64,000 nucleotides of DNA from positions 67,394,001 through 67,458,000 of the forward strand of contig OX638152.1 in the NCBI GenBank assembly GCA_951804945.1. The letters run 5' to 3'. The stretch's first letter is position 1; each line of letters starts with the position of its first letter. The notes under the pieces are model-generated. The model was not told the DNA's origin. It saw only the letters and a program-made list of their open reading frames with translations, and made no database searches. Below, one piece after another: positions 22,480-51,579 of this stretch. Source of the DNA: Podarcis cretensis (taxonomy: Eukaryota). The position numbers and the translations under genes are program-made.

Positions 22480-23400
22480 GTGTGAGAGTGTTTGCGCGCC
22501 CCTCCTACTACTTTACCTGATGAAGCGTCTCGGCAGGCAGCTGCGACGCCCGGAACAACTCCGCCACTTTGCTCCCTTCGGCGGCGGCGGCGGCGGCGGC
22601 GGCTGGGGTCGCTCCCGCCGGTCCCCCCGCCTCGGGCGCAGCTTGGCCGCCGCCGCCGCAAAGCGAGAACAGCTCGGAGTAGCCCTGCTGCTCGCTCGCA
22701 GCCAGGAAGAGCGCCGCGGCTCCGGCGGCGGCTGCCGCTGCTCCAGGCTCCATGGCAGCGGGGAATCAGGCAGGGGGCGGCGCGACTCCCGAGGCCGGGA
22801 GAGAAACTCCTGGCGGCGGGCGAGAGGGGCGAGCGAGGAGCCTCTGCAGCAGCCCCGGCTGAACCTCGTCCTCCGTCCGGCGGCGGCGGCCTCCCCCGCC
22901 GCCGCCTCCTCCTCCCCAGTGCGGAGCGGAGCTGCCTCTGCAGTGCTGCCCGAGGGGGGAGGCGGAGGAGGAGGAGGCGGCGGCGGGAGACGGAGAGAAG
23001 CTTTCTTCTTCTTCGCGCCTTCTTCTTCTGCTTCCCTCAGAGGTTTTCCTCAGAAAGCCGAGAGCGGGAAGCAGCGGCGGCGGCGGCGGCAGCTGCTCGG
23101 GAAAGGGAAGGGGAGGGAAGGGGAAGAAAAAAAGCTTCCTCAGGGCACGTGCCCAAAACGGCGTTCCCGCTCCGCAGCCTCCACCTCCACACGCCGGGCT
23201 GGAGCAGGAGGCAACCGCCGCCGACGCCGCCTCCGTGGGGTGAGGGGGGTGAGAGCCACACTCTGAGGAGAAACGCTAGACGCCCACATGGCCACCTCAG
23301 GGACGGGCTTGCTTGACCCTGACGCCCTGCTCTTCGAAGAATGGCGCAGTAGGGCTGCGCATCTGAGCATGTGCAGAGAGCCCTCCCCCCCCCCATGAAA
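22480..23400 (-). promoter_or_regulatory. REPS2 CpG island, GC-rich 5'UTR and promoter
   Basis: Very high GC/CpG content with several (GGC)n tracts; YY1-like and NRF1-like motifs at about 23336-23375. Confidence 0.75.
22517..22753 (-). CDS. REPS2: REPS2 (RALBP1-associated Eps domain-containing 2 / POB1) coding exon 1; exon 2 not found in the window
   Basis: MEPGAAAAAA...SEQQGYSELFSLC...VAELFRASQLPAETLHQ|gtaaag matches the recalled human REPS2 N-terminus (EQQCYSELFARC...VADLFRASQLPAETLHQ); synteny agrees. Confidence 0.92.
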
Positions 23401-23582
23401 AAAGCAGCCCCACAGCGTTTAAATCTCTCTGGCATCTGGGCACCAAGGTGTGCCCAGCAGAGGCCACCTGGGGTTAGCTGTGGACTTTCCTCTCACCTGA
23501 AGACTTAACTCGAAGCCCAGTTCAGAGGGTGGGTGCAGGTGACCGTGGGGTAAAAGTCTTAGCAAAATGGATACTTCTTGGC

Positions 23583-23714
23583 CAGTGCTGTTTTTCTAGG
23601 GGGAGAAAGGGGGTGCCGGAACTCACCAGGGACACCTCTCTCTTAGAATAGCAATGGCACCCACTTGAGAGGTTATGGAACTGAGTTCCGGTGAGTACCC
23701 CTGAAAAAGCCCTG
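23583..23714. mobile_element. Short MITE (inverted relative at ~17340-17475)
   Basis: Ends CAGTGCTGTTTTT...GAAAAAGCCCTG; interior shared, in reverse orientation, with 17340-17475. Confidence 0.55.
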
Positions 23715-25938
23715 GTCTTGGCAAGGGTGCCCATTTGAATGAAATATTGGGGGGGGGGGTCCAAAGAGACCCCACGTCGCATAATCGATCACAAGATGCG
23801 GCGCACGCACACCATTTGAATGGCAATGCCTATCTATTTGGGGTGGGCACCCCCTCACATATTTTATTGGGAAGACCAGAGGGATATCAGCCCCCAGGAG
23901 TTTGGTCTTGGAGAACAACATGGTTTTCCAGAAGTAGTGCAAAAACCCTTGTGCTCAAGCTTTTATTTTGGTGGGCCAGGGAAAGGTGACCAACAGGGCA
24001 AGAAGATTTTGCAGTTAACATAACTACCTCAGGTACTTGGAGTGGGATATAAATAGACATGCAGTTTAAAACTGGTTTGATGACATTGGGTTGCTTTGAG
24101 TTTTTGGCTTGCTTTGAAAACTGCTTTAGAGAACCCTATCTTTAGAAAAGTGATTATTAAATAAATAACAGGGAAGAGAGAATGGCCTGCAGTGAAGTTT
24201 TCAGACAAACACCTGCTGTCTTCTCGGTTAAAACCTACTATGCTCCTGTTTGCCTTTTAAAAACAACCTGCTGGGTGTGCAGTGCATTCCACTGCAAAGA
24301 TGGCAGATTTGCAGGGATAGACCATTTTCCCAGTATGTTATGTTATTTTGCCTTTACTACACGTAGACCTCAAATAACCCACCCTACTGACATAAGAAAC
24401 CATTCAAGTTTAACAGATGGAGGATTATATTTTAATAGGAATTGTTTCTTGAACTACAGAAGAGTTATTAACAGACAGAAATAAAATGAAACATATTTTA
24501 ATACTTGTTTATGCTTCGATTCTCCACATACCTGACAATCAGAATGGAGATGAGAAGAAAAAAGAAGATGTAAGGAGAAACAGTGTTTGGGTTAGTTTCA
24601 ATGGTATAGAAAACTGAGGAAATGTTTAAGTTGATATTGCATCCTTTTATTAACCTTCTGTTGCAGGCATTTGTGCCTTAGGCCAAATGAAAACATACAC
24701 AGCCAACTGCATATTTAAGTATGGCCACAGCTGTAGAAAGTTAAATATGTGCTTATGGCTCGAACCTCAGCTAATAAATGTGCATAAAAACAAAATAATC
24801 AGTCTTATTTGGCAATGAATCACATTTGGTGGAATACTATCATGCATAAATTAAACAGTTCTATCAGACCTTTCTTTAAGATCATAGTTGAGCAAATGTG
24901 TGAACCAGTATTGCCACCACACATGAATTTGAACAAGTTAATTTTTAGCTAGCCGTTCATCACCAAATTAGATCCTAAACAATCCAGAAACTATTCAGTC
25001 CAATTTCACAAAATGTAAGACTGGTAAATATGTCAATAATGATTGACAGGAAGTTGATAAACTCAGCACTCATATTAGCGATTTTGTTCCTTGTTAAATT
25101 GTCAGCTAATGTAAAGTCAATTTTAAAAACATTTTCTACTGTACTTTTCAGTGTTTTACATTTATTCTAACCACAACCTTTCTCAAGGCCACCACATATG
25201 TTCTATGAAGATACAAGCCTCGATTTAGTCAACAGGTTGTCATCCACTGCAGCATATTAGTCACCAGTTTTGAAATTGTCATACTTCGTCACCAGCAGTT
25301 AGTTGCCTTTCCAAATTACCCATTTCCAAATTATTACAACTATGACCATCAATTTCACATTTATAATAAAAATGAGTTTATTTCAAGTTTTAGATGACTT
25401 ACGCTGAATAATGAAATGGCAAGGTAATATGCTATGCCAAGTATATTCAATGGCTTTGTTATTTTCTGCAATAATTCCTGCAGTTTCACACAGTGGAAAT
25501 GGCATGATCTCAATCCCATACATTCACATTGTCCAAGCACATATTAGAAAAGGGGTACTATCCTAAGTTTCTTTTATAGGTCTATAAAAAGGTAAATAGT
25601 TAAGCAGGGGCAGGTACAGCAAAGACACCTGGTAATCCAGGCACAACAAAATCTAGGTTTGCAAGTAAAGCTCAATACAAATAGAAAATATGCAAGCAGT
25701 TCCTATGCAAATATTCATCCAAGGAGCATGTGAGTTTTATACTGGATTAGAGCCATATTGGTCCTGCTGATGTTAACAGAATGTCTTTATGGCTGCTTTA
25801 TACAATTACTAGGAGGATAGCACACCAGTATATGGCAGCTGTGAATAATATGAATTCCATTTTTGTATCGTTAAGGAAGGAATCAAACAAACAAACATAC
25901 AACTGCTAATATGCTATTACAGAAAATCTGGAAAGAGA

Positions 25939-26062
25939 CTACACTTAGAATATTTTGTTCAGTTCTGGTCTCCACATCTCAAGAAGGATATTGTAGAGCT
26001 GGAACCCGTGCATTAAGGTCAACCAAAATGATCAAGGGGCTGTAGCAACTCCCTTACAAGGA
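25939..26062 (+). mobile_element. CR1 LINE ORF2 fragment
   Basis: Encodes the degenerate CR1 motif LEYFVQFWSPHLKKDIVELE...TKMIKGL. Confidence 0.75.
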
Positions 26063-26681
26063 ATGGCTTTTGATCTTCCCGTAATCTTGAGTGTGCATGT
26101 CAAGATTATTTAGAGTGTTACTTAACACCTGTTTTTTCCTTTCATTGAAAAGGATACCGCCAGAAGGCCACCCAAGCTGTGTTTTATTTTAGTGGGTGTT
26201 CTGCAATTGCCTCTCCCAACTCTTACATTCAAGATGAATAGTTAAATGTCTTCTAAAGCTAAACAAAAACAGCTAGAAGTAGATGTAAAACTCAGGATGT
26301 GAAAGAGGGAGCAAAGACTTTGATTTAAAAATGTATTGCCTCCTGTAAGGATTTGTGAACACAAAAAGCAAACAAACTATTGAAGCTCTATCTAACCTTA
26401 CTTTGCAAGCAATAAATATGTCATGGCAGAAATAATTTCCAGGGAACCAGATCTTGCAGAATATTTGACTTTGGAACAGCACCAGCCGATAAAGCAGCCG
26501 TACACAAATTCTTAAATTATTTAAACCACTTGGCTTCATTTCCATATTACCCTAGTCAAGTTTGAAAGGGAGGTTGGGAGCAGCAGTTCATATAACTTAA
26601 AAGTCTATACAGTAGTTGGTTCTGGATGGACAGCTTCCTGAGTGAAAGTGATTATAGCATCAACTGCCTTTGTTAATTCTT

Positions 26682-26768
26682 GGTGAATTTCCTGATGTGT
26701 AAGTGAATAATGCAAAGAATGTTACTGCATCTCTGGGAGGACACCTGACCCTTGCTTCCAAGGACGAC
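26682..26768 (+). pseudogene. Possible highly decayed RBBP7 exon remnant
   Basis: Translates GEFPDV*...LGGHLTLASKDD versus recalled RBBP7 GECNPDL...LSGHLLSASDD, on the expected strand and at the expected syntenic position. Found by eye and may be chance. Confidence 0.2.
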
Positions 26769-28288
26769 CTATTATGAAGATATGAAAAACAATAAAAACA
26801 AGGAGGCAGGCTAAGGTACATTATGCCTCATTATGGTTCAAAGTATGCTTGGAATTTACTATACTTCTCATATATAAGAATTTAATAAGTAAACAGTGCC
26901 TGAGAACAAGAGACATTCCTTCATATTTGCTCCATTCTTCAAATCCCTTTCTGAATGGTCAGTGATATATATTTATGTAAGGCATAAAGCAGTTAATGAG
27001 CCTTGTGGAGCTTGTTTCACAACCTTCATGCTCTGCTCTAACATGGAAAGAGTGTGGATTTATTTTATCATATGTGTAAATCGGGTGGGAAACCTACAGC
27101 CCATGGGCCAATGTTGGCCTACCAGTGGATCCAATGCAGCCAGTGAGGCCATTTCCCCCAAACCTTGTCCATTGGCTGACATCACTGGGCAATTTGGTTG
27201 ATGGGTGGAGTTCAATTCTGTGTTGGCTGCTCCTGCTGGTTCTGCAAAAGGAACTGGCATGTGCAGTCAAAGCAGCAGGATTTAACGCCTACTCACCAGC
27301 TGAAATATAACAACTGAATGCCCTCATATTTGTGCATACTATACCTAAATACTGATCAACATGCAGGCAAAGCAGAAGGAAGAAACTTTGTATATTTAAA
27401 GTTCTTCAGACAGTAATGTAAACCTGATAGCATTCTTCTCGCCTGAGACTTTAATACTGAGGTTTTCTGCCCCTTGAGAACCACTGAATATAAATCCACA
27501 AAAGGAGACTTTTCAAGTAGAGAAGTCATTTTTTAAAACAACCACCCAATTATTAAAAATGTCTCTCTAAAATATAGGTTATTAGTTAACAAATGTAATG
27601 TCTTTTTTAAAACGTGGCAATTTTTTTCTAGTGCTTTCAGTTCTATTAGAATGGCATTTTGAGAAAATAATTGAAGAAACAAAAGATAATGAATTAATCC
27701 AGTACAAAAAGAAACTTGTTTTTGTGCAATAGATTTGTTCATTTTAAAGAACTAGAGGAAACTGATGGATTAACAATAGAGATTAACAAAATTTAGCATT
27801 ATAATCCTGGTTCAAGGGTACTTGAACTGCCCAATTCGTCTTCACTTAGCAAAACACTTATAGCAGAGCTAGGGAAATAGCTGAAATGCCTTCAAGTAAG
27901 AATATTTCGGATTCCAAAGCACCAGCAAGCTACTGAGTTAACTGACTGTTCTCCCATGCTCAACTCCTGTGCCTGGGGAAAAGACATAGGATCAAACCCA
28001 TTTCCCCCTACGTAGCATAATTCTCTGGTCAGCCAGATCATCTATTTCAAGGTGTCAGCTTTGAACTTTGTATGTCAAAGAAAGCTTGGAGTCTAGCAAG
28101 CTAGAAATCCCCAAAGGGGCAACCTTCCCCACATAATCATTGTGGGTAATTTAACCATTTTGTACTAGCAGCATGCTATCATCCCCTTGATCAAAATGCT
28201 CAGGGAGATCTTGAAATGAAGAATGAAATTAAGGAAACACCCAAAAGAGGAGATATTAGAGTAATGGGTGAATTCAACTACCCTACAT

Positions 28289-28510
28289 ATGGCTTTAAGA
28301 GGATTAGACAAATTCATGGAGGTGAGGGCTATTGATGGCTACTCCGCAGTTGGAGGCAGTAATATCAGTTGCTACCACAGGAAGCTGGAGTGCTTTTGTG
28401 CTCAAATTCTGCTTGCAAACTTCCGACAGGCCTCTGGTCGGCCACTGTGAGAACAGGATGCTTGGCTAGATGGGTCATTGTCCTGATCCAGCAGCCTCTT
28501 ATGTTTTTAA
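28289..28510 (+). mobile_element. CR1 LINE 3' end
   Basis: GGCTTTAAGAGGATTAGACAAATTCATGGAGG...CTGATCCAGCAGCCTCTTATGTT. Confidence 0.65.
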
Positions 28511-28814
28511 CTATGAAAACCCAGTGCGTAGACCCCACAAGCCCAGAGAGATTACCTCGCACCTTTCATCATGAAAGGAAAACAGAAGACAACACACTTG
28601 ACACTTTCTGGGTTTTCAATTGACGGAAGACACTATTTGCTAATGTTTCCATAGTCACCTTTGACTGGATTTAACTTTCCAGGGGTCATTTATCTTTACC
28701 TTACCATAGAATTTACCTTTTTTTCCCTTGAACTAGAACAATGTGAAGCAAGGTCATGCTTCTTGTGGAAGAGCTGTCCCTAACTGTCAAGACTTTGTAG
28801 CTCTTTCATGACAC

Positions 28815-29090
28815 AGAATCTTAAGAGTTGTAAGGGACCCAAGGGTCATCTAGTCCAACCCCCAGCACTGCAGGAATCTTAGCTAAAACATCCATGACAG
28901 ATGGCCATCCAACCTCTGCTTCCACTGCTGAACAGCTCTTACGGTCAGGAAGTTTTTTTCGAACATTTAGTCAGAAACTTGAAGCCATTGTTTCGAGTTC
29001 AGCCCTCCAGAGCAGGAGAAAACAAACATGTTCCCTCTTCCATGTGACAGCCCTTGGGATATTTGAAGATGGCTATCATATCTCCTCTCA
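28815..29090 (-). mobile_element. CR1 LINE 3' fragment
   Basis: AGAATC...AAGGGACCCAAGGGTCATCTAGTCCAACCCC is the reverse complement of a CR1 3' end. Confidence 0.65.
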
Positions 29091-29593
29091 GGCATGCCTA
29101 ACAGTAGTGTGATTGGGATGCTTTCTCATAAGGTCACTTAGCAAAACAGGTATTTCCAAACCACCAGCTGCACATTAATGTAGAGAGAGAGAAATATTTT
29201 ATTTTTCGTAATCGTGGAAAAAGCACCTGGCACAACTTGTGGGGGGGGGGGCCTGCAAAAATACACATTAGGCACCTTAATACGAAGACTGTTTGGTTCA
29301 TTAAATCAAATTGCTCCCTGTAAAGGACAGAGGGAAAACTATTGGGCAAAATACTGCTTGTTCACACTGTAGCCAGTGACAGCGAGTGGTAAAACAAAAA
29401 TGAATGTTAGAATGACATCTTGACACTTTCTATCCTTAACTTCTTCCTTTTCGATTTATAAAAAGAGAATTTTGCTTCAATTTATTAGTTGAGATGGAAG
29501 AAATAGTACAGACCACAAGTTTGATAGATAAAGGGATTGTTGTCCTCAGTTTTGTGTAAGACCCATAATAGGTGCTCGTTAAGACTCTGCCTT

Positions 29594-29612
29594 TTGCCAC
29601 TAGATGGTGCTG
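29594..29612 (+). promoter_or_regulatory. Candidate CTCF site
   Basis: TTGCCACTAGATGGTGCTG closely matches the CTCF core consensus CCAC[C/T]AG[A/G][G/T]GGCGC. Confidence 0.5.
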
Positions 29613-32600
29613 GTAAACTCTTTTGATGCACTACTGACGGAAATTGAATGGAGTTTTCCCATCCCATTATTAAAGGAAAGTTTAAGACAGCTATGGTGTT
29701 TTAACATTTAGATACACTAATGGAAGGGCTTTGTTTTCAATTCTGAATCCTTAGGATAGCTATGGAAGTGCAAAACTGCATGTTTACAGTTCACTTAATA
29801 ATACGTACAGTGAACACCACATATCTATGGACAAGACCTACAGCCAGAAAAGTGAAATTTAGTTGAGAACTCTAAAAAAAATAAGACACATAGCCTAGTA
29901 TATTAAGCACACATATTTACTTAATTTATACAGAACTGAGTAGATAAAATTTCAGTTTCACATTAGTGAAAAATCTCTACAAAATGTTCTTGAAAAGCAA
30001 AAACAAGACTGGCTATTTTATTCAGCATTTCTTTTTCATGAAAGCAGGTATGGGTTGTAAAAATAAAGCAGAGTGTTCAGCACAAACTAAATATCTGCAT
30101 CACTTTTCACAGTTATTTCCATCTACAGTCTGAAGAGGTAGATTTTCTGCAACACCTGAGAACTGAACGGTAACATAACCAGGTGTAATAGAGAGAGAAT
30201 GGATTGGAAAGATACAGCCCCCAAGCATGTATGCAAATACACTTAAGAATTACAAATGAAAAAGAGTGTTGGCTTTGAGGGTCCTGTGTGAGAATAGTTG
30301 AAGATTCTAGGGCTTAATCGGCAGATTAACTGTGCATTTGAACCACTGGTTATGCAATAGGAAAAACAGTGCACTCCCCCCCCACACACTGTACGCATCA
30401 TTGCAAAAGGTATAAAGAGATGGACGGTACAAGCAACAGCCTTAAATTTAGCACATGATTACTGGAATTTGCACATTAAAGCAGCTGCCAGTGGTAAGCA
30501 TGGGTTGTACAGGGGGAAGTACACTGGAAAAAAGCTGGAGAACAGCAGTGCAATTCCAGATCAGACAAGGACTGGGCTTATCCCATGCTGGCCCTCTCAC
30601 TGGTTAATGTATGGAATGTCATAAGATTTCAGGAAGCAAAATTTAGTTCTACACTTAGAAAAGACAGGAACCAGAAAGAATACTCAATGCAATTCAATAA
30701 CTTTTAAGTATTAGTGGCCACAATCCTTAGGGTGTTTTTAGCTATAACGTGGAAGCAATTTTTAATGCACCGGGACCCAAAGTCTACTCTTCTCTAAAGA
30801 GAGCAAATGTTACACCAATCCTGGCTACAGGCAAGGCAACCACATACATTGGGTTGGTGGGGTGGGATGGTTCAGATACACTGCAGTTCGGTCCTTCAAA
30901 ATTGCATTCAGTTTCAAATTACTTACTATGACATCTTTGCTTACACATATATGCTTTAAAGTATTGGACAAGGTTTTCTGTTTTGTTTTTTAAAGGAAAC
31001 ATCAGAAAATTTCTCTCCAGAATCAATTACAATCAAATGGTTATGACGGACAAAGCTCATTCTACCCTTCCTCACTATAAAACCTCCCACCAGCTTTGCT
31101 TTCTTTTACTGTACTTGAAATGCATACCAAAAAAGAAAAGAAAAAACTGCAAATGCACCTTATAAGGAATATTAACTGGCCAGTTTCCAAATTTGGTCAC
31201 TGCAGATTTGATTTTGCTCAATGGTATTAGGTAACATTCAGTAGGTGTGATCCAACCTTTATTTCCTTTCAAGACATCTATCTCCATTCTGTACATTTCA
31301 TCAGGAAAAGGGTAGTACATAGCAACATAGCCTGAACATTCAAGTAATCTGCAACTCAGAGAGAATGGGTAGGCAAGGAGAGAACCTGCCAACAATTATG
31401 TGCTTGAGTCAGAAATCCCTTAAAAATGAAAACCAAATTAAATACCAGAAATAGGAGTATTTGTATTTTTCAAAACAACCAGCAACTAGAAAGCTACTAA
31501 CTGCAAGGCAGAGTTCAACAGCATCTTCTGACCTAGTAGCACTCTGCCTAACATTAACAAAGAAAACACTATTGGTCCCTGTCTTTTAAATAAATAAAAG
31601 AAACACAAGTCCAAATTATGGGGGTATCTGGGCTTTTCCAGATCAATCTACATTCACAACACTAACCACAAACGCAACAGAAATAAAGTGGAGCCTCGCT
31701 TGCTGTATATTAGTTAACTGATGTGCCAAATCTACCAGGTAACCTATAGATACCAGAAGGCACTTTTGCTTACAGGTGTGTTTTAATCTAGTCATACATT
31801 TTTATTTTACAAAAAGCAATAGTTGAGAAAACAGATCAGAGTATTCCCCCCTCCATCCCTAGACGACAAACTGTATTATCTATACTCTGACCTATCCTTG
31901 TTAAATAGGCAAGTAAGTTTTCATGGGAACATGTTTCCAGTCAAATATGTGCATTATGGTCTGCTGTACTGTCTATTAAAGGGACCAACAGATGGAGTGT
32001 TATTGGTCATTACACCCATTTTCAGTGATGAACACCTTTGTAGCTGTTCATTATTTCATGCTAATTAGGCACCAAACCTAGTGAAGAAATAATGGCAGAA
32101 AAAAGTACTTTTGCCTAGCACCCACAAACCAAAAACCCATTGCATTTTGTTTTATCAGACAAGCCACAACTACACACATGCATTTGTAGGCAGTAGGTTT
32201 TAACTATTAAGGTTTTATCTCCAGGATGACGCAAAAGTGTGCTCAAAATGCATCTGAGTTTTGGTCAGTGGTTAATTGGACAAACTTTTGAGCGGCTGTT
32301 TTCTTCCCTTGTTTCTTCACTTTTAACAGGTCAGGCAACAGTCACTCCGTCTATGAATTGACTGTGCAGGACAATCCTGAGAAATATATGAGTTGTACAC
32401 CCTGTTTTCCAGTTGCAAAATTATATAGATTTCAAAGCTGTAGGCAAGACTGCAGCTACACTAAACCCTGTAAGAGTTTTTAGTTTTGTTCATATATGAA
32501 TCCAGTAATGAGCTTCCACTGGCCATCACATCTCCAATTATAGTTCACTGTAGTATTTGGTCATTACAATTCAATACTAAGCCTTAATTCACTTAATAGA

Positions 32601-32978
32601 AGCAACGATTCCCTCCCCCTCCCCCAAACCCGAGTCTGTGACACTCTGGCCACAGTTGTTCCCCTGACATGATGTTAAATCTGTACACGAGTCTTAGATG
32701 ACATGGTGATGTGTGCTATGGGGTCAGAAGGAAGGAATCTGCATGCATCCTTTATGAGTTCTGTTTTAAAAAACGAGGCAGATGTGCAACAGTTGTGGAA
32801 AATTTATAGATAAGCTATTCAATAGCCGCTACGCAGCTTCCTGTACCAGGCAAGTTCTGTTCTAAGAAAATACAGATATGGTAGAAAAAGTAAGAAAATT
32901 TTCACCACAAAACTAATAGTTACCACCACCAGTTAAAGTTATACACAAAATATATCTCTCAATACAGTGTTTACACTT

Positions 32979-33305
32979 TTAGTCAACAAAATCTGCAGTA
33001 GGAATGGAAGCCAGGCAAACAGTTTTTTCAGAGCCTTCATTTGCCACTGATGATTCAGGATCTGGCTGAATTCCTTCTTGCGCTCCATTGGCAGAACTCC
33101 CCAGTTCCTCATGCGAATTGAGTGTGCATGACTGCAACACATGCACAGCTAGATCAACATCTGTTTCTCTTAAAGAAACCTGTTCCTTAAGAACTTCCAC
33201 CTTCTCATTCAGCTCATTCCTTTCTGTTTGAAGAGCCCTGCACAGCTTTTCCAAACGCTCCAGTTTTATTTGGAAGCCTTTGTATTCTTTGTCCTTCACT
33301 GTTTT
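32979..33305 (-). CDS. TXLNG: TXLNG exon 10 (last coding exon)
   Basis: ctgcag|KTVKDKEYKGFQIKLERLEKLCRALQTERNELNEKVEVLKEQ...TADFVD*. Confidence 0.95.
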   Translation of the reverse strand, partial: KTVKDKEYKGFQIKLERLEKLCRALQTERNELNEKVEVLKEQVSLRETDVDLAVHVLQSCTLNSHEELGSSANGAQEGIQPDPESSVANEGSEKTVCLASIPTADFVD

Positions 33306-34112
33306 CTGCAGAAAACAAGCAAGAGATTGCACATGATGACATTTGTGTGACCCGTATCTGATGATTCCTCTTGTTGCTGTGAATGCTGTAATATTATCTG
33401 CTCTTTTTATTTTAGAATTGCATGCTTGATTGGTTTTCATTTATATATTGTTGTACCCTGCATTACAATGAAGAACATGCTAGAAATACTTGAAATGTTC
33501 AGAAACAAGATAATAAATTATATGTTTAGAAACATTAAGCAGGGCCCTCCCTTGTTTACCCAGAAGATACTAATAAAAGTGATTTGTATAAAAATAACTG
33601 GTAACTATTTCACAAGAGAAAAAGAAAGACAACAGGCAGTACAGAACAAAGAGCTTCTGCTAGTGCAAGGACTTTTGGCTGTGAATCAGAACTTCGCCTT
33701 CCGCTGTGCACCCCCTAAATCTGTTCTGGGGTCCCACCAACCCTTTGGAGCAGATTTGGGAAGGGTGCAGGGGTTACATAAGGAAGGCAAGTTAAACTGC
33801 ACTAGTGAAATCACTTAGCAGCATACACTGCCCAATGTATTTAGAATATGATTGAAGACATCTATTCAAAATAAATTTGTTCACTAAGACAGCTAAGTTA
33901 TTTGTATGGATCATGACATCAACAAGCTAATCCACAGACATAAAAAAATCTAAAGTCTTTCTCAGCCGCTTTTGTATAGTCTGCTTTCCAATGACGGGTT
34001 GGAGACCTGGTGGTTTTGATTCAACTTCACATTCTACAAAGCTATACAAAACAGGCTACCTGCATAATATATAAGGCACATTGGATTTTTAATCATGAAA
34101 CTTAATACTCAC

Positions 34113-34208
34113 TTCTTCAGCCATTTGCAAGAGAGCTTTGTTGTTGTTTTCCCATTTTGTGCGCCAAACTATTATTTCTTTTTCCAGTTTTTTTATCTTC
34201 TTGGTCAT
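34113..34208 (-). CDS. TXLNG: TXLNG exon 9
   Basis: MTKKIKKLEKEIIVWRTKWENNNKALLQMAEE|gtgag. Confidence 0.96.
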
Positions 34209-35013
34209 CTGAAACGTTAAAGTTATTGATTTCTTTTAAGCAAAAACATTTCACTACTTAAAACCAGGATGACTAGTCTTTTGGTGATCACTAACTCCCA
34301 ATGAGCCTCAGCCAGCTGGTGCCTGCGGCCTAAGATTGGCCAATCCTACCTTTTAATTCTCAGTGCCTCTTTATTCTCAAGTCACTCAAGCTCACTGTTT
34401 AAAATGAGATGTTAAATTGAAAAAAGACATTACAGGAGGAATTCAACACAGTGCTAAGGTGAATGTTCCATCAGTAGGAGGATTTTCCCTTGTGCAATGG
34501 AACTTTCTCCCCTCTCCTCCCCCAGTGCTCCCTAAATGTTTCATTTAAAGGTTTTTGTTTTTGTTTTAAGTGCACTATACTATCTCCCACAAGAAAAGCA
34601 AACCAAGATCACTCAGTTATTGGCATTTTAGTAATTAAAATAATTAATAACTTTTAACGGTGATGATTTCAATAATTAAGATGCGCACAGGCTAGCTAGG
34701 TCTCTTTCACAGTGCAATTCTCTATCTCTTTTATCAGAAGTTAAGTTTCACTGAGTTCAATGGGACTTACTCCTGGGTGAATGTATATAGGATTCAGCGA
34801 CTGGGAGGGTGGACCGTAGCAAGAGTCTATGGCAGGTGGAACCAACTCATTCTAGTTTTGTGTCTATCCGCCTCCCTGCTGCACTCCACGAGGGCAAAAC
34901 TGAGGCTAAGGTGGAGGATTCTGACAGGAAATGCCAACCCTGGAGGCAGGCAGGTAGCTGGGAGCTGGATAAGGGGAGAGTAAGGTTGGTGGGACACTGT
35001 CCCATTCACCCTA

Positions 35014-35250
<237 letters not shown>

Positions 35251-36943
35251 TTAGAGTTACACAAAAAATGCAGTAGCCACACACTGGAAATTCCACTATT
35301 TGGTAAACAGTGAAATATGTGATTTCAAAAGACTGAACTTCACTTATGTGACATCTAAGTATGAGGTGGCTTTCAAAGCAGAACAGCATGCTAAAGGAGT
35401 TAAAAATAATGAGAATAAAGGATTCTTTGTTTTGCTGGGTTGTAGTCAACTAGGTCCTACTCATGAGTAGTCCCACTGAAGTGAACTGCTTTGAGCCCAT
35501 TTCCCCCTCTGAAGAACTTTTATCTAAGCTTTATTCACTCAAGTTTTAAACTCAACCACCACCTATGCACATGCCCTAGGAAAAATCTTGCAAACTAGCC
35601 ATTCGTTCTCCCACTCCTCTCTTAGAACCAACAGATTAAAGATGCAATGTTGCACACAGGTACCTGGGAGAAAGTTGCACTGAACTTAATGGTGCTTTCT
35701 CCTGAGTAGACGTGTGTAGGATTGCACTGCAGGATACCTAACCCATATTAAAGTAATACAAATTCTTTTATTTGCAAAGTATGCAACAATGACGCAAAAC
35801 CTGAGGTGAAAGGGAAAGTACTACAGGAATAACAAGTTCGTGAGTGGTTGGGCTGTCAAGGGTGAACATATCTCATCAGACCTCCACAAAACGTGAACTG
35901 TAAATCCATTACAAACCTTTCAGGACACCACACAAGACATGTTTTTGCCAAAATCATTCTAGAAACTAAATTCCCAATTGAACTGCTTATTTGTGCCGCT
36001 ATTGACCAAGATCTATTTTACTTTAAGCTGCAGAATAAGGCATAGAAGAAAAAAGCCAAGCCACTGGGTGCACAAAAATGGTTTTAATATGGTTAAGTCA
36101 TTGCCAATATTATAGGTTAGTATGCAATTTGTTTCAGCACTGAGTTTCTCAGGGGTACTTTCCCATGCACTATTAGTAAGCATTGGAAAAATGAAGTAAA
36201 TCCAGAGCATTTAGATTTAGGCAGGGCACTACCAAACCAAGAACCAAGGCATTAGAACTTTTTGCCACAAGGTAGAACTTTTCCACGTGGAATCATGCAG
36301 TGGAGGTTCATATTAAAATATATTCTTGTTAGTGGGATCATCATACACTAGGAAAGTCTGATTTTTGAGACTTACCTAGCATGACATAAGAGCAGCCACT
36401 TAAAGTGATAAACCCACTCACAAGAATGGTTTCACAAGTACCTGCATTATGGCCCAAAAACAGCCACCTTGGGGAAAAATAATAGTCCTGTGAATTTGCC
36501 AGAGACCAGCCAAAACGTACCCAGCACCATCAGAACATAAAATGACCTAATATACTGTTTTATATCAATAACAATAATAATGGGCTCAAGCTAGTGCAAG
36601 GATTTCCCCTTGTGCAACAGAACTACTCTGGCTCATCTCATGTGCCCCTCCCCAAATCTAGCCGGAAAAGCTGAGGGGGGAACCAGAACAGATTTAGGGG
36701 GCTAAGTGAGCAGGAAGCTACTCATTATCTCAAGAGTTCACCAATCTTCCAAGGGGGGTGGAATTTCCCAACTGTTTTATCTTCCCTTTCCCAGGGGCTT
36801 CTTGTGGGTTTCCAACTTGTTTCACTGATTTGCTAGTTTCTGAAAATGTTTTAGAAATTCTAAGAGAACAAATAATTTTCTCAATTAAGTTTGTAACTAA
36901 GTGATTAACAGCCTTAATGCAGCAAATGTTTAAATTAGTTTAC

Positions 36944-37018
36944 CTGCTGTTTTAATTGAGCTTCTTGCTGTTTCATCTGTTCACACTTGTGTCTAGACTC
37001 AGTAGCCTCTTTTAGCAG
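36944..37018 (-). CDS. TXLNG: TXLNG exon 7
   Basis: LLKEATESRHKCEQMKQQEAQLKQQ|gtaaa. Confidence 0.95.
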
Positions 37019-37789
37019 CTGAAGAGGAAGAAAAATTGTATTGTCTCTACATTACCTTTATACCAAAGAAAGCACATCATCTACATTTTGCTAAGCCTTT
37101 ATTCTTCCTATTTTATGTAAGAGATTTTAAACAAAGTTATTTATTGGAAGAAGATGAAGAAACTTACCAGCCGGCATTCAAATTTAGTCATTTTTTCAAA
37201 GTGACTTAGAACAAATGTATTTGTTTTCTTAAGGTCAATTATAGTGGTGATACATGAGAGAGACCAATTTACAAATAAATTCAAAAATGTGAACATATTT
37301 AGCCAGTCTTACTGTATTTGGTTTTGTTTAGCAGTTCCTATTAACACTACTGCAGATTTCCACTCCTATGTAGGATATAGTATCACTGGTTACTATATCC
37401 TAACTACTGGAGATTCTACAACACTACTGCAAATTCTTCTCTGCAAAGGCAAAGGTTTGGTTTTGAATGAACATCACTGGAAAGATGTTCTGAGTTTAAG
37501 TGCACTGAAGAATTTAATGCACCATGGATCACACAATGTAATGATCTGGTGTTCGGCAACATACTTTAATTGTTCACTAAAAATACACAGCTTTTGTTGA
37601 GTAACTGCAGAATATCTGTTCAAAATATTTTGAATGTATGGAATTATAAATATGTTAATCTAAATATTTTCTTGTAGCAGTTTTTTTTAATGCTCTCATA
37701 AAACTGCTAGGCATCCCAGCCATCAAGAGTTAACACATCTGTATTTCTTCCGAGCAGAAGAAAAAATAATGGCATGTAGAAATGCATTA

Positions 37790-38030
37790 CAGTGGTACCT
37801 TGGGTTACATATGCTTCAGGTTACATACACTTCAGGTTACAGACTCTGCTAACCCAGAAATAGTACCTCGGGTTAGGAACTTTGCTTCAGGATGAGAACA
37901 AAAAATGTGCTCTGGCGGCATGGTGGCAGCGGGAGGCCCCATTAGCTAAAGTGGTCTTCAGGTTAAGAACAGTTTCAGGTTAAGAACGGACCTCCGGAAC
38001 AAATTAAGTAGTTAACCCGAGGTACCACTG
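37790..38030. mobile_element. CAGTGGTACC-family Tc1/mariner MITE
   Basis: TA-flanked; TIRs CAGTGGTACCTTGGGTTA / TAACCCGAGGTACCACTG. Confidence 0.85.
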
Positions 38031-38084
38031 TACTAAGCTGCTAAGAGGTAATGAGACCAGCAAGAAACCTGAAAGAGCATTTCC

Positions 38085-38410
38085 ACCCTCATCATTCAGC
38101 CCGGAAAGATCCAGCACTGAGGGCCTTCTGGCAGTTCCCCCACTGCAAGAAGTGAAGCTACAGGGAACTAGGCAGAGGGCCTTCTCGGTAGTGGTGCCCA
38201 CCCTGTGGAATGCCCTCCCATCAGATGTTAAGGAGATGAGTAATTATATAACATTTAGGAAACATCTGAAGGCAGCCCTGCACAGGGAAGCTTTTTAAGG
38301 TTTAAGGTCTTACTGTGTTTTTATATGTGCTGGAGGCTGCCCAGAGTGGCTGGGGCAACCCAGTCAGATGGGTGGGGTACAAATACATGCATACATAATT
38401 TTTATTATTT
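38085..38410 (+). mobile_element. L2 LINE 3' end
   Basis: AGGGCCTTCTCGGTAGTGGTGCCCACCCTGTGGAATGCCCTCCC (RAFSVVVPTLWNALP) plus 3'UTR GCCCAGAGTGGCTGGGGCAACCCAGTCAGATGGG. Confidence 0.75.
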
Positions 38411-38627
38411 ATATATTATACATTTTAGTGCTACAAATTTACTCCATGCCAGTGAACTGTGTAGAAGTTGCCAAACTGCCCATTCTAGAGGACTTATGAC
38501 CTATACAGATTACTGATAAGTTTGCTAACATACAGTAAGCACGAGACAGAACATTCAAATGGAGCAGTTTACCATTTGTTCTAGTTATAGTTTCAGACCT
38601 AAAACACACTACTGTACCAAGTTACTA

Positions 38628-38804
<177 letters not shown>

Positions 38805-39076
38805 CTAGAAGAAAGATTGAATGTTGGTACCATCAACACCTAGTATACCTTTTCAAAAGATTCAAAACTGAATTTGCATTTCAGACCTTTTTTAAAAAAA
38901 AACTTTAAAGTTACTCTCATGTTCATCATGGCTCTTACCTGGTTTAACTAACTGGCCACCACCACATATGGAAAGCCATGCTTAACCTGGAAATACGTGC
39001 TAGCAGTTTCGACACCATCAAGAAACCCTTGAAATGGAGTGACCACCACCAACATATGACTGACGAAACACATGCA

Positions 39077-39155
39077 GGCTGCAATCCTATGCACACTTAG
39101 TAACCCCGCTTAACAGAGTAGGCTTACTTCTGAGTAAACATGCACAGGATTACAC
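39077..39155. repeat. ~80-90 bp palindromic dispersed repeat (MITE-like)
   Basis: GCTGCAATCCTATGCA...TGCACAGGATTACACC; diverged relatives at ~34711-34798, 35641-35730, 50030-50092 and 58450-58530. Confidence 0.5.
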
Positions 39156-40465
39156 CATTAAGCAACAGGTGCTGCACATACACCCCACAAACATAAATTC
39201 TTATTCTAACACAGAATATAGTAATCTGCGACACTTCAAAAACAAGTAAGCAGAAGTGGGCTTGAGGAAATGTTTAATAGCTTGACTTATAGTAGAGGCT
39301 TTTTTATTTTATTAAGGAGCAGGATCAAAGACTGAGAAGTGCAGCCATCGAGATGAAACGTAAAAAACCAGAAGCTGATTTCAAACAATATTGTTTAGCA
39401 GCATTAACTCTGTAAAACACACTACACAGTGGATTATTCAATACTAAATAGAACAAACAGTAACTGAAGTTTGGAGAGGGTGGGAAAGAAAATAAAAATT
39501 ATTATTATTATGCCATTCAGAGTTTATATTTAGTTAACTGGTGCAATTTAAAGAGTGTGGAATTTCAGTAAGAGAGTCTTATGGATCCCCGAAGGAATGC
39601 AACAGCATTTTTAAAATGTAAAATGGAGAACATCTATATGTGTTCACTCTTAAGGTAACTCTTGGACTGGTACTTTCTCTCAACCCAATTTACCATGTGT
39701 ACCACCCCCTTGCTTCCAGGAGGAAGGGCAGGAAAAGAAGAGAGGGTTTGATTTAGAGCTGCACCGAGCAAAACATGGGACAATACTATGGAAGAAAGCA
39801 ACATTTGTGAATTCTTCCTTCCCCTGATACCTGCTGAAAATCTGACTGGAGGGCAGGGTAATGGACCCTCCATCACAGAGTAAGAGATGACATGGGGTGC
39901 TGCAGGTGGAGTCAGTGAAAATAATGGCCCTCCTTGTTCCTTCAGCAGAGCTTCCACTGGAGCTCTGCCCTCTCTGTAAATTGAAGGAACTATTCCATTT
40001 GCTGAAAGGCAACTGTGGATACAACCCAGAGTGTCTGAAAGAGCCAGAACCTGTGGCCTTCCAGATATTGCTGGACTGCAACTCTCATCAGCCCCAGTCA
40101 GCATGACCAAGGGACAGGGATTATAGAGTCAAGAGCACAGGTGGAGGACCACAGGTTCCCCACATGGCTATACAGAAACATTGTATAGATCAAACATTTG
40201 CTCCTAAGTTGAGGTAAGCAGAATTTGTATTCCTTTCTGTATTTCTTTATAGTGTGCAAGTACTGCCTCTTATGAAGTCAAGCTTTAAACGGCATCTCCT
40301 TCCTTCTACGTGTAACCTATAATTACTTTGTCAAATGCATTTCCTGCAGTCAGAAGCCACTGCATCACATTCGAACCTAAGAGTAAATATGTTCATGTGA
40401 GATAATTTATCATCAAGCTGTAATATTCCAAAATGAAATGCTATTGAATAACAAAGCAATGTCTA

Positions 40466-40693
<228 letters not shown>

Positions 40694-41520
40694 TTACCAA
40701 GAGAGATTAAAGCAACATGTTTTTACTAATTATTTTGGACAACAATAAAAAATAAATAAATCAGGACAATGTCATATTAATGGTTTAGTCCCTTGGAATG
40801 GATGCTAGCTTCCACTTCTCTGGAACAATTTGCCCATAAGACACATGAACATGCACTGTTTTGCTCTCCAACCAGTATACAGAAGCTTCTCAGTAGGTTT
40901 TGTTGCTCTTGAACAGGAGAAGTGGTGGCTATGAGCTTGAATCAGCAAAAGAAAGCAGCTTATAAATAAATTCTTTTCCACATACCAGCAGCTACTAGTA
41001 CCAGACAATTATTGTCACTTCATTTGCAAAATAGGCTGGTTTCTACTGAAGCAAGCAAGTCTATATTTTGGGGAAACAAGGAGCTATCAATTGTTTTCCA
41101 CAGCAGGGCCTTTGCTGTTGTGCTTCCACACCTCTGCCTCATGAGAATCAATAGTCACCACAAGATCTACACCAACACCCAGCATGAGGTCTAACTTGCT
41201 GTTCTTGCTCCTGCCTTAAATATGCAGACAAGCTCCTGCCTCCACTGAAGTACATTGAAGTACAAGCGCACAGTATGCAAAATAACTCTTTTATCTAAAA
41301 CCAGGCTGGTCAAACTTTGTGACTGACGGGTCTAGTAGGACACCCTAATTTTAACTTCTACTTAACTACAACTATCAACAAAAGTGAGTAGTAGCACATT
41401 TCTATGAATTAAGAGCTGATCTAACTGAAGAATCAGGTTGTTTTTTCCAGAACAGTTGCACGTCACTACAGCTACTTCCCAAAGTGCTAACATTATCATA
41501 GCTTTATCTTCAGGATGGAA

Positions 41521-42240
41521 TAAGGGATAGAAATACTGGAAGGAAATTCAAAACTCTTATCAAAAATGTATAATCAACTATTAGAATGGGATACTAAGGA
41601 CGAGGAAATAAAAGAAGTTATGGTGAAATGGGTGATAGATCTGGGATATAATTTGGAATACGATAGTTGGATTAAGCTCTGGAATAAAGATATGAAGTTC
41701 ACTGCTTGTGTTGCCTTAAGAGAAAACATGGAAAAAATGATGTACAGATGGTACATCACCCCTGTAAAATTAGGAAAAATCTATAAGAATGGAGATAAAA
41801 TGTGCTGGAGGTGTAAAAACAAGGAAGGTAGTTTTTACCACATGTGGTGGACTTGTGAAAAAATCAAGAACTTCTGGGAGCTCATTTATAATGAACTGAA
41901 AAAAATGTTTAAATATACTTTTGTTTAAAAACCTGAAAATTTTCTTCTGGGAATGATTGGCAATGAAATTAAGAAAGAGGACCAGACATTATTCCAGTAT
42001 GCAACAACAGCTGCTAGAATTTTAATCGCCCAAAATTGGAAATCAACCAATATCCCAACAGTAAGAGATTGGCAAAGTAAATTATTTGAATAATTCAGAA
42101 TTGGCAAAATTAACACAAAAAATTAGAGACCAGAAAGAAACAAAGTTTATTAAAGAATGGAATAAATTCATAACCTATATTGAAGTAGATTTAAAAAATC
42201 CAAAGATCACAGTAGGCTTTAATATAACCCTTCGACATAC
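41521..42240 (+). mobile_element. L1-clade LINE, 5'-truncated ORF2 C-terminus, antisense in TXLNG intron 4
   Basis: ORF with YRWYITP...CWRC...GSFYHMWWTC (CCHC/zf-RVT) and FLLG motifs; broken by a stop and a frameshift. Confidence 0.88.
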
Positions 42241-43308
42241 AAAAGTTTTAAAGAAAAACTGTAATGCAGCAGGAGGCACCAGCAGATCTCCTTAAATGGG
42301 GCTGAGGCTTCTTTGTTACTTAGAGAACTAATCTCCCCAAAGGATGCTAGGGAGTGTCAGGGATAGTCAAAAACTGATTTCCAGAGCTGGGAACAGGGAG
42401 GGAGGGGTTCGCTCTTGTTAAGTTTTTTGATGGTGTGAGAACAGTCTTTAATATCCTGAGAACGTTGGGAGGTGGTGAACCCCCCCCACACAGCTGCATT
42501 CCTCAGTTGTGGAGGATAGTGCTGGGAACCTTCTTTGATGTTTGACATTGTTTTTAGAAAGTGAGGCATTGGGAGGGGGTAGCTAATGGATGATCTGCAC
42601 GTAGCCAGTCTTGGAAGCCACACAGGCTATCTATAAAATTGGACAGTTTGGGCAGGTTTTTTTGAAGCTCATGCATGGACTGATCGGCTGCAGGGCCGTG
42701 CAGACTGAGGCTACCTGGGGGAGTCGCTTTGCCGCTTCTTGAAGGCTTCCAAGTGGCAGATTGAAGTGCTTGCTTGGTATGTATATATTGCTTGCTGTTT
42801 TGGAATAAAATCTTTAAATCTTCTCACTCACTTGTGTATTTTGTATTGCTTCTGAATCTCATTATAAAAACAAGCTTGCCTTTGGCATGACTATACCCCA
42901 TACCACCCTTCTGTATGCTGCTTAATCATCTCAAGTGCTCTTACTACTACATCCTTGTCCCACTGTACTTGAAATAATTCATTGCATCCAATATGGGTTT
43001 AGAGCTGGACACAAACTGAGAGAAGCCCACCTTCTTTCTAGCCTCTTATCCCTGGGTTCCAGTGTAAAATGTATTAACAACCTTGTTCGGAGACACATTT
43101 CCAGGGAATAACCAGCAGTCAACTTCTAGAGGATTGAGCATCTTTGCTGTAACATAGCATCAAGGAATAAACTAAACTGGTGCTCAACAGACTGTGTTTC
43201 CATCCACTCCCAATTGTTTTCCATTTTGCTATACTATTGTTTATATATTCCAGCAGCCACCCTATTTTTAGACAACCATATTGCTCTCAGAATCAGCTTC
43301 ATGAACTA

Positions 43309-43494
<186 letters not shown>

Positions 43495-43657
43495 CTAAAT
43501 GAGAAAAAGAAGAGGTTAAAAATGCAACCCCAACCTATTCTTTGCCATTACCCTTTAGAACTGAAGTGGTTTTCTGTACCTACTGTCTCCAACGGATTGC
43601 ATTAGTTTTTAATCAATCCGATACAGAACCAGAACCTCACAATCACAACTTGTTACA

Positions 43658-43804
43658 GAATCATAAAATTGTATAAATTGAAGGGATCCTGAGGATCATC
43701 TAGTCCAACTCCCCGCAATGCAGGAATATGCAACTGTCCCATATAGGGATCAAACCTGCAACCTTGGAGTTATCAGCACCACACACTAATCAACTGAGCT
43801 ATCC
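43658..43804 (-). mobile_element. tRNA-Ile-derived SINE with CR1-type tail
   Basis: Minus strand GATAGCTCAGTTGATTAGTGTGTGGTGCTGATAACTCCAAGGTTGCAGGTTTGATCCC, then the same ATTCCTGCATTGC...GGACTAGATGA tail as the 12040 element. Confidence 0.7.
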
Positions 43805-45099
43805 ACTTGGATTATCTATGTTTCATTTCACTATAAATGAGCATAATCAAATCCAGGTAAGATTGAGGACTGCTAGGGCCTCTTATCCAGAGTGGAGAGA
43901 TCTATGTTAAAGAAGAGGGTCAACACCTCCCCGTTATTTTAGTTTGCAATCTTTGCTACCCTTGTAGTATAACTGGAAGCTTGGAGTGTGGTGATGGCCA
44001 GGTGTCCTTACCCCCACCAACTCAGCCACCACACAATGCATACACCTATAACCATTATGCCTGTTTACTTCGCAACGAGCTTCAGAACAGGATTCACAGT
44101 GCTAGTTTCTTTCAGAATCTTGTGACTTTGGAATCTACAATCCTTTCTTCTTTCCACATTGTCCTTCCATGAATTAAGGCAAATTTCTCAGCAAATCTTT
44201 TAGAACTTTTTGTCTGACAAGACAGTAAGTGCACATAGACAACCTCTCATATGTTGACCTTCATCTATAGAATTTTCTACTCAAGATTTGTTACATTTTA
44301 AACATTTTCTGAATTGAATACACAGCAGATCTGGGGTGTGTGCAGGGGGAAGGAGAAGAAGGGGAAGACCTGTTGCATAAGTAGAAGTCCAGTCTGCTAT
44401 CACGCGGACATGCTGGATACAACCCAGGAACTAGGGGCATGATCCCACATAAACAGAAATTGCATACACTCTTTTCTCGAAGAATTATCCATTGTGCATG
44501 CGAGAGGTAGCAGGCAATCTTGCAGTCAACAATACAGCTGAATGATAGCTGGTGTCTCGACTAAAAATACCTAGCCAAAACACATGTAAAAACCATTTCC
44601 TCTGTATCTATACATATTCCAATTACAGCTTGGATGTGGAACCTATGACTGTCCAGTTGCTGCTGAAATATTGCTTCTGAGTCACAGGTTTCCCACCCCT
44701 GAATTAGGGCGTCTTTGAATGAAGTAGCAATAGGGGCAACAGAAAGTATAGTTCTGCTTCCTCACCTTTATCAAAACCAAATAATGTCTTAACATGTAAC
44801 CAGGAGCTTAAAAAGTTCCCACACTTTTGAGAGGACAGTGCCAAATAACATACATTAAAAAATATTTTTTCCATGATCCCGTTATAATAAGCTTTAACCA
44901 GGGTGATATTAAGCAGTATAGAAACAGTGCAAATAACAACATTAAGATGTTTAATTGTTCTTGACATTTGACATTTCAATCTGTTTCTATTGGTTGTTCA
45001 AAGGAATGAAACTCCAATGCTAAGACACCTATGCATGTTTACAAAGTTAATTTGCAACTACAGAGAAAGCACGTGACTTTAATTGTAGTACATAATTAC

Positions 45100-45191
45100 C
45101 AGATCAGCATATTTCTTGCAGAGTGCAGCCAACTTTTCTTCTGGAGTAGCAAGAGTATTTAAAGCTTGCATCAATAAGAGTACTTCTTTCC
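45100..45191 (-). CDS. TXLNG: TXLNG exon 3
   Basis: ctgtag|GG AAA...GAT CTG|gtaatt; KEVLLLMQALNTLATPEEKLAALCKKYADL. Confidence 0.95.
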
Positions 45192-45486
45192 CTACAGACC
45201 AAGAATAAAAGTATTTTAGAAGTATTACCAGAACATTTTGTGCTCTGAGTAACATATGTTGATAGTAGAAAATGGAACATTTATAATTATACCTAGAAAA
45301 TGCAAAGTATTAGGCAATTATCAACAAAAAAAGCAACAAGAACTTTGGTACAATACAAGGCCAGATTACTGAAAAAGGACTTAAGAAGTTTGATACAGTA
45401 GGAATACTGGACATTTCTTAGGATCTCTACTTCAAAGACAAAGTGATGAAACAGAGCAAGGCATTCTTCAAAGTACCATAAAAAAA

Positions 45487-45600
45487 ACATAAGAAGAGCC
45501 TTGCTGTATCAGGCAAAAGGCATATCTGGACCAGGATCCTATTCTCACATTGCGAACCAGAGGCCTATGGGAAGCCCGCAAGCAGGACTTGCTACAACGG
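45487..45600 (-). mobile_element. CR1 LINE 3' end fragment
   Basis: ACATAAGAAGAGCCTTGCTGTATCAGGC is the reverse of the 28289-28510 tail type. Confidence 0.55.
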
Positions 45601-46293
45601 CGATTTCCCCACTTCCGATTCCCAGCATACTACCTCCAGTACTGAAGGTAGAACATAGCTTTATTCTCCAGTTATCAGAATGTCTCATCGTTTTCTAAAA
45701 TTAGATTTGATAAAGCAAAGGGGGGGAAAGCAAAGAACAAGGCAGTAGAAGAACCTTCTGTTGGGTGTCCTAATCCCCGATCAGCACTGTGAGAGGGAGT
45801 TAGGCTTGAGGGGAAGTGTCTCTCTGCCAGGTTCTGCTCGGGGGGGGGGGGGGGGGCGGGCGGGGGGGAGGTACTCCACTAGCACAGAGGCCTCCACTGT
45901 GACTACCAAAAGCACAGGATGTTGAAAAGCTATTGCTGACACAAACTACCATAGGGTTCCAAAACAGGGGAAAGATCAGGGACAGGGATGTATCCACCTG
46001 ATCCTAAGCCAGTCATTTTATTAGAGAAGGGCCTGATCTGAGCATGTCTCCTGCACCAGACTAGAGCTGCCACAACAAAGACTCCCTCTCCCCTCATACA
46101 CATCTTCTTCGGTCCTAACTGGCAGGGCTATGGAAGAGGATCCACTGCTTCACACCACCTTAGCCCCTTTTGATTGCTTTGCTAAGTATGTTATCAAGAA
46201 ATGTAAACAAGCGTTCTATTTTTTCAATGCTGGACAACCTAACTTCAAAAGTCAATGTTCAATTATTTATCCTGGTTCAGCACTGTCGTATAC

Positions 46294-46609
46294 CTAAGGT
46301 TTTCTCTTTGCCCTTCTCACTTTCTGGGTCTTGCTGGCCATCAGGTGGGTCAGTACGAGTCTCTTCTCTTCCAGGGGTCTCCTCTCGCAATTCCTGAGGG
46401 CAGAATGCTGCTCCCAACACATTTCTGTTTCTGGGAATAAAATCCTCTGCCTCCTCCAACGCACCTGCATTTTCCGCACCATCACAATTTGTATCTGAAT
46501 GTTGCAACATTGTATTCAGCGCAGCGCACTTGCTGTTCCTCAGCTGCCGGTCCGGGCTGCTCCTTCCAAATTTACAGTTTTGCGGTTCTTCCTCAGTAAG
46601 CAGCATATG
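46294..46609 (-). CDS. TXLNG: TXLNG exon 2
   Basis: tttcaaag|CAT ATG...TTA G|gtatac; contains QELREETPGREETRTDPPDGQQDPESEKGKEKTLG. Confidence 0.9.
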
Positions 46610-46708
46610 CTTTGAAAGGGAGAGAAAAGAGCTCAGGTTACCCAGGCGGAAAAGACCCATTTGTATTTCGTCCTGAGATTAACACACGCATTGACAAAAC
46701 CCCATATA

Positions 46709-46911
46709 CAGTGGTACCTCGGGTTAAGTACTTAATTCGTTCTGGAGGTCCGTTCTTAACCTGAAGACCACTTTAGTTAATGGGGCCTCCTACTGCTGCC
46801 GCACCGCCACGATTTCTGTTCTCATCCTGAAGCAAAGTTCTTAACGTGAGGTACTATTTCTGGGTTAGCGGAGTCTGTAACCTCAAGCATATGTAACCCG
46901 AGGTACCACTG
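46709..46911. mobile_element. CAGTGGTACC-family Tc1/mariner MITE
   Basis: TA-flanked with a perfect 18-bp TIR CAGTGGTACCTCGGGTTA. Confidence 0.88.
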
Positions 46912-46989
46912 TACTGTATTACGTGTTTTTTGTTTTTTACAAATGAAATAGCAGCAGGCTAGGGATGCCAGAGCAAACCCTTCTAGTTA

Positions 46990-51444: not shown

Positions 51445-51579
51445 CTCAGAGCCGCCTCCTGACGCCCGCGCCGCCGCCGCCGCCTCCTGCCCCTCTCGCT
51501 GCTCCTGTGCAGGACTCGGTCCGGTCTCCACAGCGCGGCTGCCGTCGACACACGCTAGCTCAGCTCTGCGCGCCGCCAT
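51445..51579 (-). CDS. TXLNG: TXLNG coding exon 1 (1a)
   Basis: ACTATGG in a CpG island; MAARRAELAC...GGGSE|gtaaga; 45 codons; phase 0 fits exon 2. Confidence 0.8.

Follow-up and report, generated by a model that had tools for sequence, protein, structure and literature searches.

Absence of an intact RBBP7 exon between TXLNG and a REPS2-type gene in a lacertid lizard genome

The absence of RBBP7 in squamates, with evidence of segmental deletion, has been described by Salve, Sonal and Vijay (2026, BMC Biol 24:72, PMC13005343; preprint 10.1101/2025.07.03.663111). This paper and its preprint were the only reports found in our literature search on RBBP7 and squamate or lizard gene loss. According to its Table S2, RBBP7 is missing in 30/30 annotated squamates, a set with four lacertids (Podarcis muralis, P. 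raffonei, Zootoca and Lacerta agilis). All five outgroups (alligator, chicken, green turtle, human and Xenopus) carry it intact, and Table S8 has the gene annotated in tuatara. Here we analyzed a 64-kb stretch of contig OX638152.1 (the window, in full) that carries TXLNG and a gene read as REPS2, the two neighbors between which RBBP7 is expected. We observed no intact RBBP7 coding exon between them. The gene was likely lost in the lizard-snake ancestor, with its body likely mostly deleted and the near-identical RBBP4 likely filling in. The locus agrees with the published case in the gene, the flanks (putative REPS2 on one side, TXLNG-SYAP1 on the other), the clade, the proposed mechanism and the closest paralogue, RBBP4. 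The absence was already known in print, and a slot without RBBP7 is ordinary for the squamate clade. Compared with the paper, which stops at 'unretrieved ortholog', the present locus is one further lacertid genome, and a detection-limit simulation and a check of diagnostic residues in a squamate RBBP4 have been added, neither of which is met in the sections of PMC13005343 cited here.

Other squamate genes have been reported lost while a paralogue was retained (KDM3A/KDM3B, SUV39H2/SUV39H1, ADAP2, CAV3 and TBC1D14), and in these, as here, a chromatin or signalling gene has gone from a conserved syntenic block (PMC13005343). The same source classes KDM3A, SUV39H2, ADAP2, CAV3 and TBC1D14 as ortholog loss with a retained paralogue, and places RBBP7 one tier lower. 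A further parallel is the single-copy RbAp46/48 state of Drosophila (p55/Caf1-55), Tetrahymena (RebL1) and chicken DT40 cells with RbAp48 only, in which one subunit serves all RbAp-dependent complexes (PMC10287929, PMC5097169). DT40 is one cell line, whereas squamates would have gone back to one copy secondarily and in the whole organism. In Drosophila and Tetrahymena the single RbAp copy is presumably ancestral.

In chicken, turtle, tuatara, platypus, mouse and human, RBBP7 occupies the plus strand of the slot (PMC13005343, Table S4). The corresponding interval of the window is as follows.

23450..29800, plus strand: RBBP7 slot, in which neither RBBP7 coding sequence nor a CpG island was found (Pfam, tblastn with controls, CpG scan)

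We observed no match to the WD40 or CAF1C_H4-bd families in a six-frame Pfam scan of 22501-34500. The same scan recovered a Taxilin match (E 2.9e-09), an exon-level internal positive control, and one unrelated, sub-threshold family. For tblastn we used eight vertebrate proteins, namely RBBP7 of quail, junco, platypus, mole and gorilla and three RBBP4, with the same queries against the reversed window as control. These queries were reached from a short RBBP4/7 motif by way of RBBP4-type genes in metagenomes: 118 loci with the RBBP4/7 motif were found in metagenome contigs, the invertebrate-type RBBP4 open reading frames (ORFs) among them being the first tblastn queries, and viral contigs gave no match to the motif. 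No WD40-core match rose above the reversed-window control anywhere in the 64 kb. The best E-value inside 23400-32978 was 1.5, against reversed-window bests of 0.037-0.87 for the eight queries. The lowest values in the window, 0.003 and 0.007, came from non-conserved N-terminal extensions of two queries aligned to the GC-rich REPS2 exon. A plus-strand first-exon pattern (16-base first coding exon with ATG and donor) was not found in the slot, and no Rfam family matched in the interval. A first-pass annotation of this DNA had claimed that RBBP7 appeared to be missing from between TXLNG and REPS2, with no intact WD40 exon on the plus strand, and had proposed a tblastn with RBBP7; both claims were borne out when that search was run with bird and mammal queries.

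We further estimated what such a search can detect. Back-translated platypus RBBP7 was cut into 11 pieces of ~38 codons each, randomly decayed and inserted in the interval, and recovery was scored with a bird RBBP7 query at a 30-bit threshold over 30 runs. Undecayed pieces were recovered in 30/30 runs, whether 1, 3 or 11 were inserted. With all 11 pieces, recovery was 30/30 at 0.3 substitutions per site, 18/30 at 0.4, 10/30 at 0.5 and 1/30 at 0.6, while a single piece at 0.3 was recovered in 9/30. The top bird RBBP7 score in the real interval was 20 bits. Intact or recently broken RBBP7 exons are excluded by these results, and an ancient, eroded remnant would mostly escape detection. Since relics with at least 0.5 substitutions per site were mostly missed, deletion and decay in place would look alike here by sequence.

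The composition of the slot was also evaluated. GC content from 23450 to 30000 was 0.39 and the observed/expected CpG ratio 0.20, and no 200-bp window with GC of at least 0.5 and a CpG ratio of at least 0.6 was present from 23300 to ~33000, as the first-pass annotation had stated in denying the slot a CpG island. Three segments of the interval recur elsewhere in the window, and a decayed peptide lies among them.

23586..23708, no strand assigned: dispersed repeat fragment, 69% match to 17474-17350
25936..26043, plus strand: decayed peptide, seen in translation, no Pfam match
28403..28508, no strand assigned: dispersed repeat fragment, 74% match to 45591-45483
28815..28880, no strand assigned: dispersed repeat fragment, 79% match to 12170-12105 and 85% to 43681-43727

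We take 28403-28508 to be the 3' end of a CR1 element, 28815-28880 to be a CR1-type 3' tail, and the peptide to be the C-terminus of ORF2 of a CR1 long interspersed element (LINE). Two of the weak RBBP7 tblastn matches (25948-26008, E 2.6-6.7) fall within this presumed CR1 peptide and are therefore likely not RBBP7 relics; over all queries, matching at 25948-26008 (E 2.6-8) stayed inside the control range and was rejected as a relic. The earlier description of the slot as AT-rich with fragments of CR1 and of miniature inverted-repeat transposable elements (MITEs) thus held for base composition and for the presence of repeats. The MITE label found no support, as no long terminal inverted repeat was found, and the CR1 labels are tentative.

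Related repeats were seen elsewhere in the window. In the stretch 12031-12170 a weak tRNA match (35.3 bits) runs directly into a tail 79% like the 28815-28880 repeat, and the whole is probably a tRNA-derived short interspersed element (SINE) rather than a tRNA gene. Near-identical copies of a young short repeat, with the same translated text, lie at ~4770-4950, 10070-10250, 19280-19530 and 56700-56980; presumably this is the Sauria SINE.

One reading of such a slot is that RBBP7 lost its function where it stood and then eroded past recognition, so that the ~6 kb from the REPS2 island to the TXLNG 3' untranslated region (UTR) would largely be its decayed body, without any large deletion. The simulation is compatible with this, as relics of that degree of decay were missed in most runs. 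The time available would be long, the tuatara-squamate split being ~250 million years old (PMC13005343), and repeats with further copies in the window account for only three short segments of the interval. Against decay in place stand the lack of a CpG island and of any first-exon-like ATG/donor pattern on the plus strand, and the published squamate-specific shortening of the REPS2-TXLNG intergenic distance, significant in five distance tests or ratios (PMC13005343). We regard decay in place as unlikely, and prefer loss with deletion of most of the gene body.

The flanking genes were identified as follows.

~22500..23400, no strand assigned: CpG island at the REPS2-type gene, bounding the empty slot on its left, from base composition
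22517..22753, minus strand: first coding exon of putative REPS2, 79 codons, ATG at 22753, GT donor after 22517
30000..32978, minus strand: presumed TXLNG 3' UTR, its extent inferred from poly(A) hexamers
32979..51579, minus strand: TXLNG (gamma-taxilin), 10 coding exons, last exon 33305-32979, stop at 32979
54255..62108, minus strand: SYAP1 (3' portion in several exons, stop codon at 54255), from exon translations and a partial BSD match

TXLNG was confirmed. Its exons were mapped by tblastn with Podarcis, turtle, duck and tuatara gamma-taxilin, and exon 2 gave 57 matches in the protein collection, of which the named ones are gamma-taxilin/TXLNG and the remainder uncharacterized. The top match was Podarcis muralis gamma-taxilin at 97%, followed by Varanus (78%), Rhineura (75%), geckos (66-70%), tuatara (59%) and turtles (58-59%); by these exon 2 identities the source genome is that of a squamate, a lacertid lizard. 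An exon upstream of TXLNG carries a partial BSD-domain match (Pfam PF03909, E 4.5e-05, 23.8 bits against a cut-off of 24.6, partial exon) and fits SYAP1, a name taken from published synteny. The left flank we take to be REPS2 from its N-terminus and the published Podarcis order. The exon at 22753-22517 gave no Pfam match and only a weak, unrelated one in the PDB, REPS2 exon-2 motifs had no match within the window, and a literature search for the putative exon 1 peptide found no paper. The 500-bp bins of 22501-23500 have GC of 0.63-0.75 and CpG ratios of 0.63-0.92. In print, the Podarcis order is REPS2-[RBBP7]-TXLNG-SYAP1-CTPS2 (PMC13005343), and in the window we observed putative REPS2, TXLNG and SYAP1 in this order, all on the minus strand. 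The putative REPS2 ATG lies 10.2 kb from the TXLNG stop, and the stop ~9.6 kb from the edge of the CpG island, which agrees with the earlier statement that the stop is under 10 kb from the REPS2 promoter.

Minus-strand AATAAA hexamers of the TXLNG 3' side occur at 31801, 31258 and 30017, with more at 29481 and 29198. Beyond the presumed TXLNG 3' end, a CTCF-like motif at 29597-29611 was the single match in the window to a pattern written after the site had been seen, and is a lead only. Within TXLNG intron 1 there is a second CpG island (47000-47500) with an ATG at 47234, four codons and a GT donor after 47223 on the minus strand. The phase 0 donor is compatible with TXLNG exon 2, which makes this mini-exon a candidate alternative first exon with its own promoter; its four residues are the N-terminus of none of the 57 TXLNG homologues. 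A 134-codon open stretch on the plus strand of a TXLNG intron (41524-41925) gave no Pfam match and is presumably a C-terminal remnant of a LINE ORF2. In the presumed REPS2 intron 1, the stretch 4000-5000 is CpG-rich and GC-rich, which the SINE copy there explains in part only.

The locus also bears on whether RBBP7 is present and was dropped by local mis-assembly. We consider this hardly credible. The window holds no N, RBBP7 is not GC-rich (mean 45.9%), the same absence recurs in all 30 annotated squamates, and long reads show no assembly gap at the locus in Crotalus, Pogona and Podarcis muralis (PMC13005343). In a sequencing-run search, 20 of the 24 runs listed hold the interval or part of it, with no RNA run among the holders listed. 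In at least 10 runs, drawn from three studies, half or more of the words sampled from the interval were present, which speaks for presence and not adjacency, and the top runs may be the source sample.

Some published observations could be read as pointing to an RBBP7 that moved elsewhere in squamates or lacertids, by translocation or as a retrocopy, and is still functional. Human RBBP7 gave BLASTn coverage of 32-72% in 12 squamate rows, alignments of 92-99% were obtained for the exons of chicken RBBP7 on squamate genomes (Table S9), and cross-species RNA mapping for RBBP7 showed a transcription signal in squamates (PMC13005343). However, in 5/6 raw-read data sets, that of the lacertid Zootoca included, the assembled sequence groups with RBBP4 in the published trees (PMC13005343). 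We observed that bird RBBP7 and Anolis RBBP4 are identical at 378/412 residues, which suffices for cross-alignment, and because of this identity the exon alignments and the RNA signal likely reflect RBBP4. Among 48 cluster members listed (at most 15 per cluster, in clusters of up to 2279), Anolis RBBP4 was the only squamate-labelled protein, a weak indication in the same direction. A functional copy elsewhere seems very unlikely to us, our own tblastn having covered the 64-kb window. The protein conservation measured here also makes a hidden, diverged RBBP7 orthologue unlikely, and the 'unretrieved' rank given on divergence grounds seems overcautious for a protein of such conservation. On this conservation the paper carries an internal mismatch, its text giving <65% RBBP7 identity to human and its Table S1 74.3 +/- 9.6 (PMC13005343).

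Loss of RBBP7 with deletion of most of its body is thus the explanation that we favor, and as RBBP7 is missing in all annotated squamates in print, intact in the outgroups and annotated in tuatara, the loss is likely squamate-wide. The first-pass annotation had proposed a loss, or a translocation, in 'this lineage', with RBBP4 possibly covering; loss with RBBP4 cover is still the best reading, while its scope is likely all squamates and not one species. Several points weigh against this explanation. The protein search was nearly blind to old relics, and the name REPS2 for the left flank found no confirmation in Pfam or the PDB. The squamate RBBP4 evidence comes from a single species, Anolis. 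In print, one of two phylogenetic regressions was non-significant (MPLE p = 1; IG10 p = 0.0044), and RBBP7 is filed as an 'unretrieved ortholog' and not as a confirmed loss, divergence being cited (PMC13005343). A hemizygous RBBP7 truncation has been linked to spermatogenic maturation arrest in humans (PMC10575721), and RBBP4 and RBBP7 are termed non-redundant in embryonic stem (ES) cells, in favor of RBBP4 (PMC10287929).

The remaining paralogue was evaluated through Anolis RBBP4 (P0204), one squamate species and not that of the window. At 26/26 columns diagnostic against RBBP7, defined from three RBBP4 and four RBBP7 sequences, it carries the RBBP4 residue, and it is identical to turtle RBBP4 at 412/413 positions. 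In a 17-sequence tree it clusters with RBBP4 (support 94/96). As the RBBP4 protein is unchanged in Anolis, any compensation would probably be regulatory, and these comparisons suggest that it would act via expression.

RBBP7 would have been lost in the squamate common ancestor, either by inactivation followed by deletion or by deletion outright. RBBP4 and RBBP7 are subunits of the same complexes (PRC2, NuRD and NURF, with HAT1 pairing with either), and since RBBP4 shares the complexes of RBBP7, loss of the latter would be tolerated wherever RBBP4 is expressed. In germ cells, where mammals need RBBP7, squamates would need RBBP4 expression as cover. The two proteins are reported to be 89% alike and to share their complexes. 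In ES cells of the mouse, most binding sites are common to both, RBBP4 is essential, and depletion of RBBP7 has little effect (PMC10287929). Chicken DT40 cells lack RbAp46 expression and rely on RbAp48, and Hat1-RbAp48 acetylates H4 (PMC5097169). By analogy with these mouse ES and chicken DT40 cells, we infer that RBBP4 may cover for RBBP7, which would be the expendable member of the pair in some cells at least. In the mouse, oocyte meiosis is disturbed when RBBP7 is knocked down (listed in Table S11 of PMC13005343).

A broader and more tentative possibility is that squamates are an amniote order that has gone back to a single RbAp subunit with its RBBP4 protein unchanged, and that the germline jobs of RBBP7 (spermatogenesis and oocyte meiosis) were taken over through a change in RBBP4 expression. 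Taken with the losses reported for KDM3A and SUV39H2, such a takeover might indicate that germline chromatin control was simplified in concert in lizards and snakes.

The present study adds one more lacertid genome, a measured relic detection limit and a first check, in Anolis, that the squamate RBBP4 protein is unchanged. In lacking RBBP7, squamates offer a naturally occurring knockout of a gene with a link to male infertility in humans (PMC10575721), and the RBBP4 check shifts the question to RBBP4 expression in the germline. An amniote lineage is apparently viable with only one of the two RbAp histone chaperones that serve NuRD, PRC2 and HAT1.

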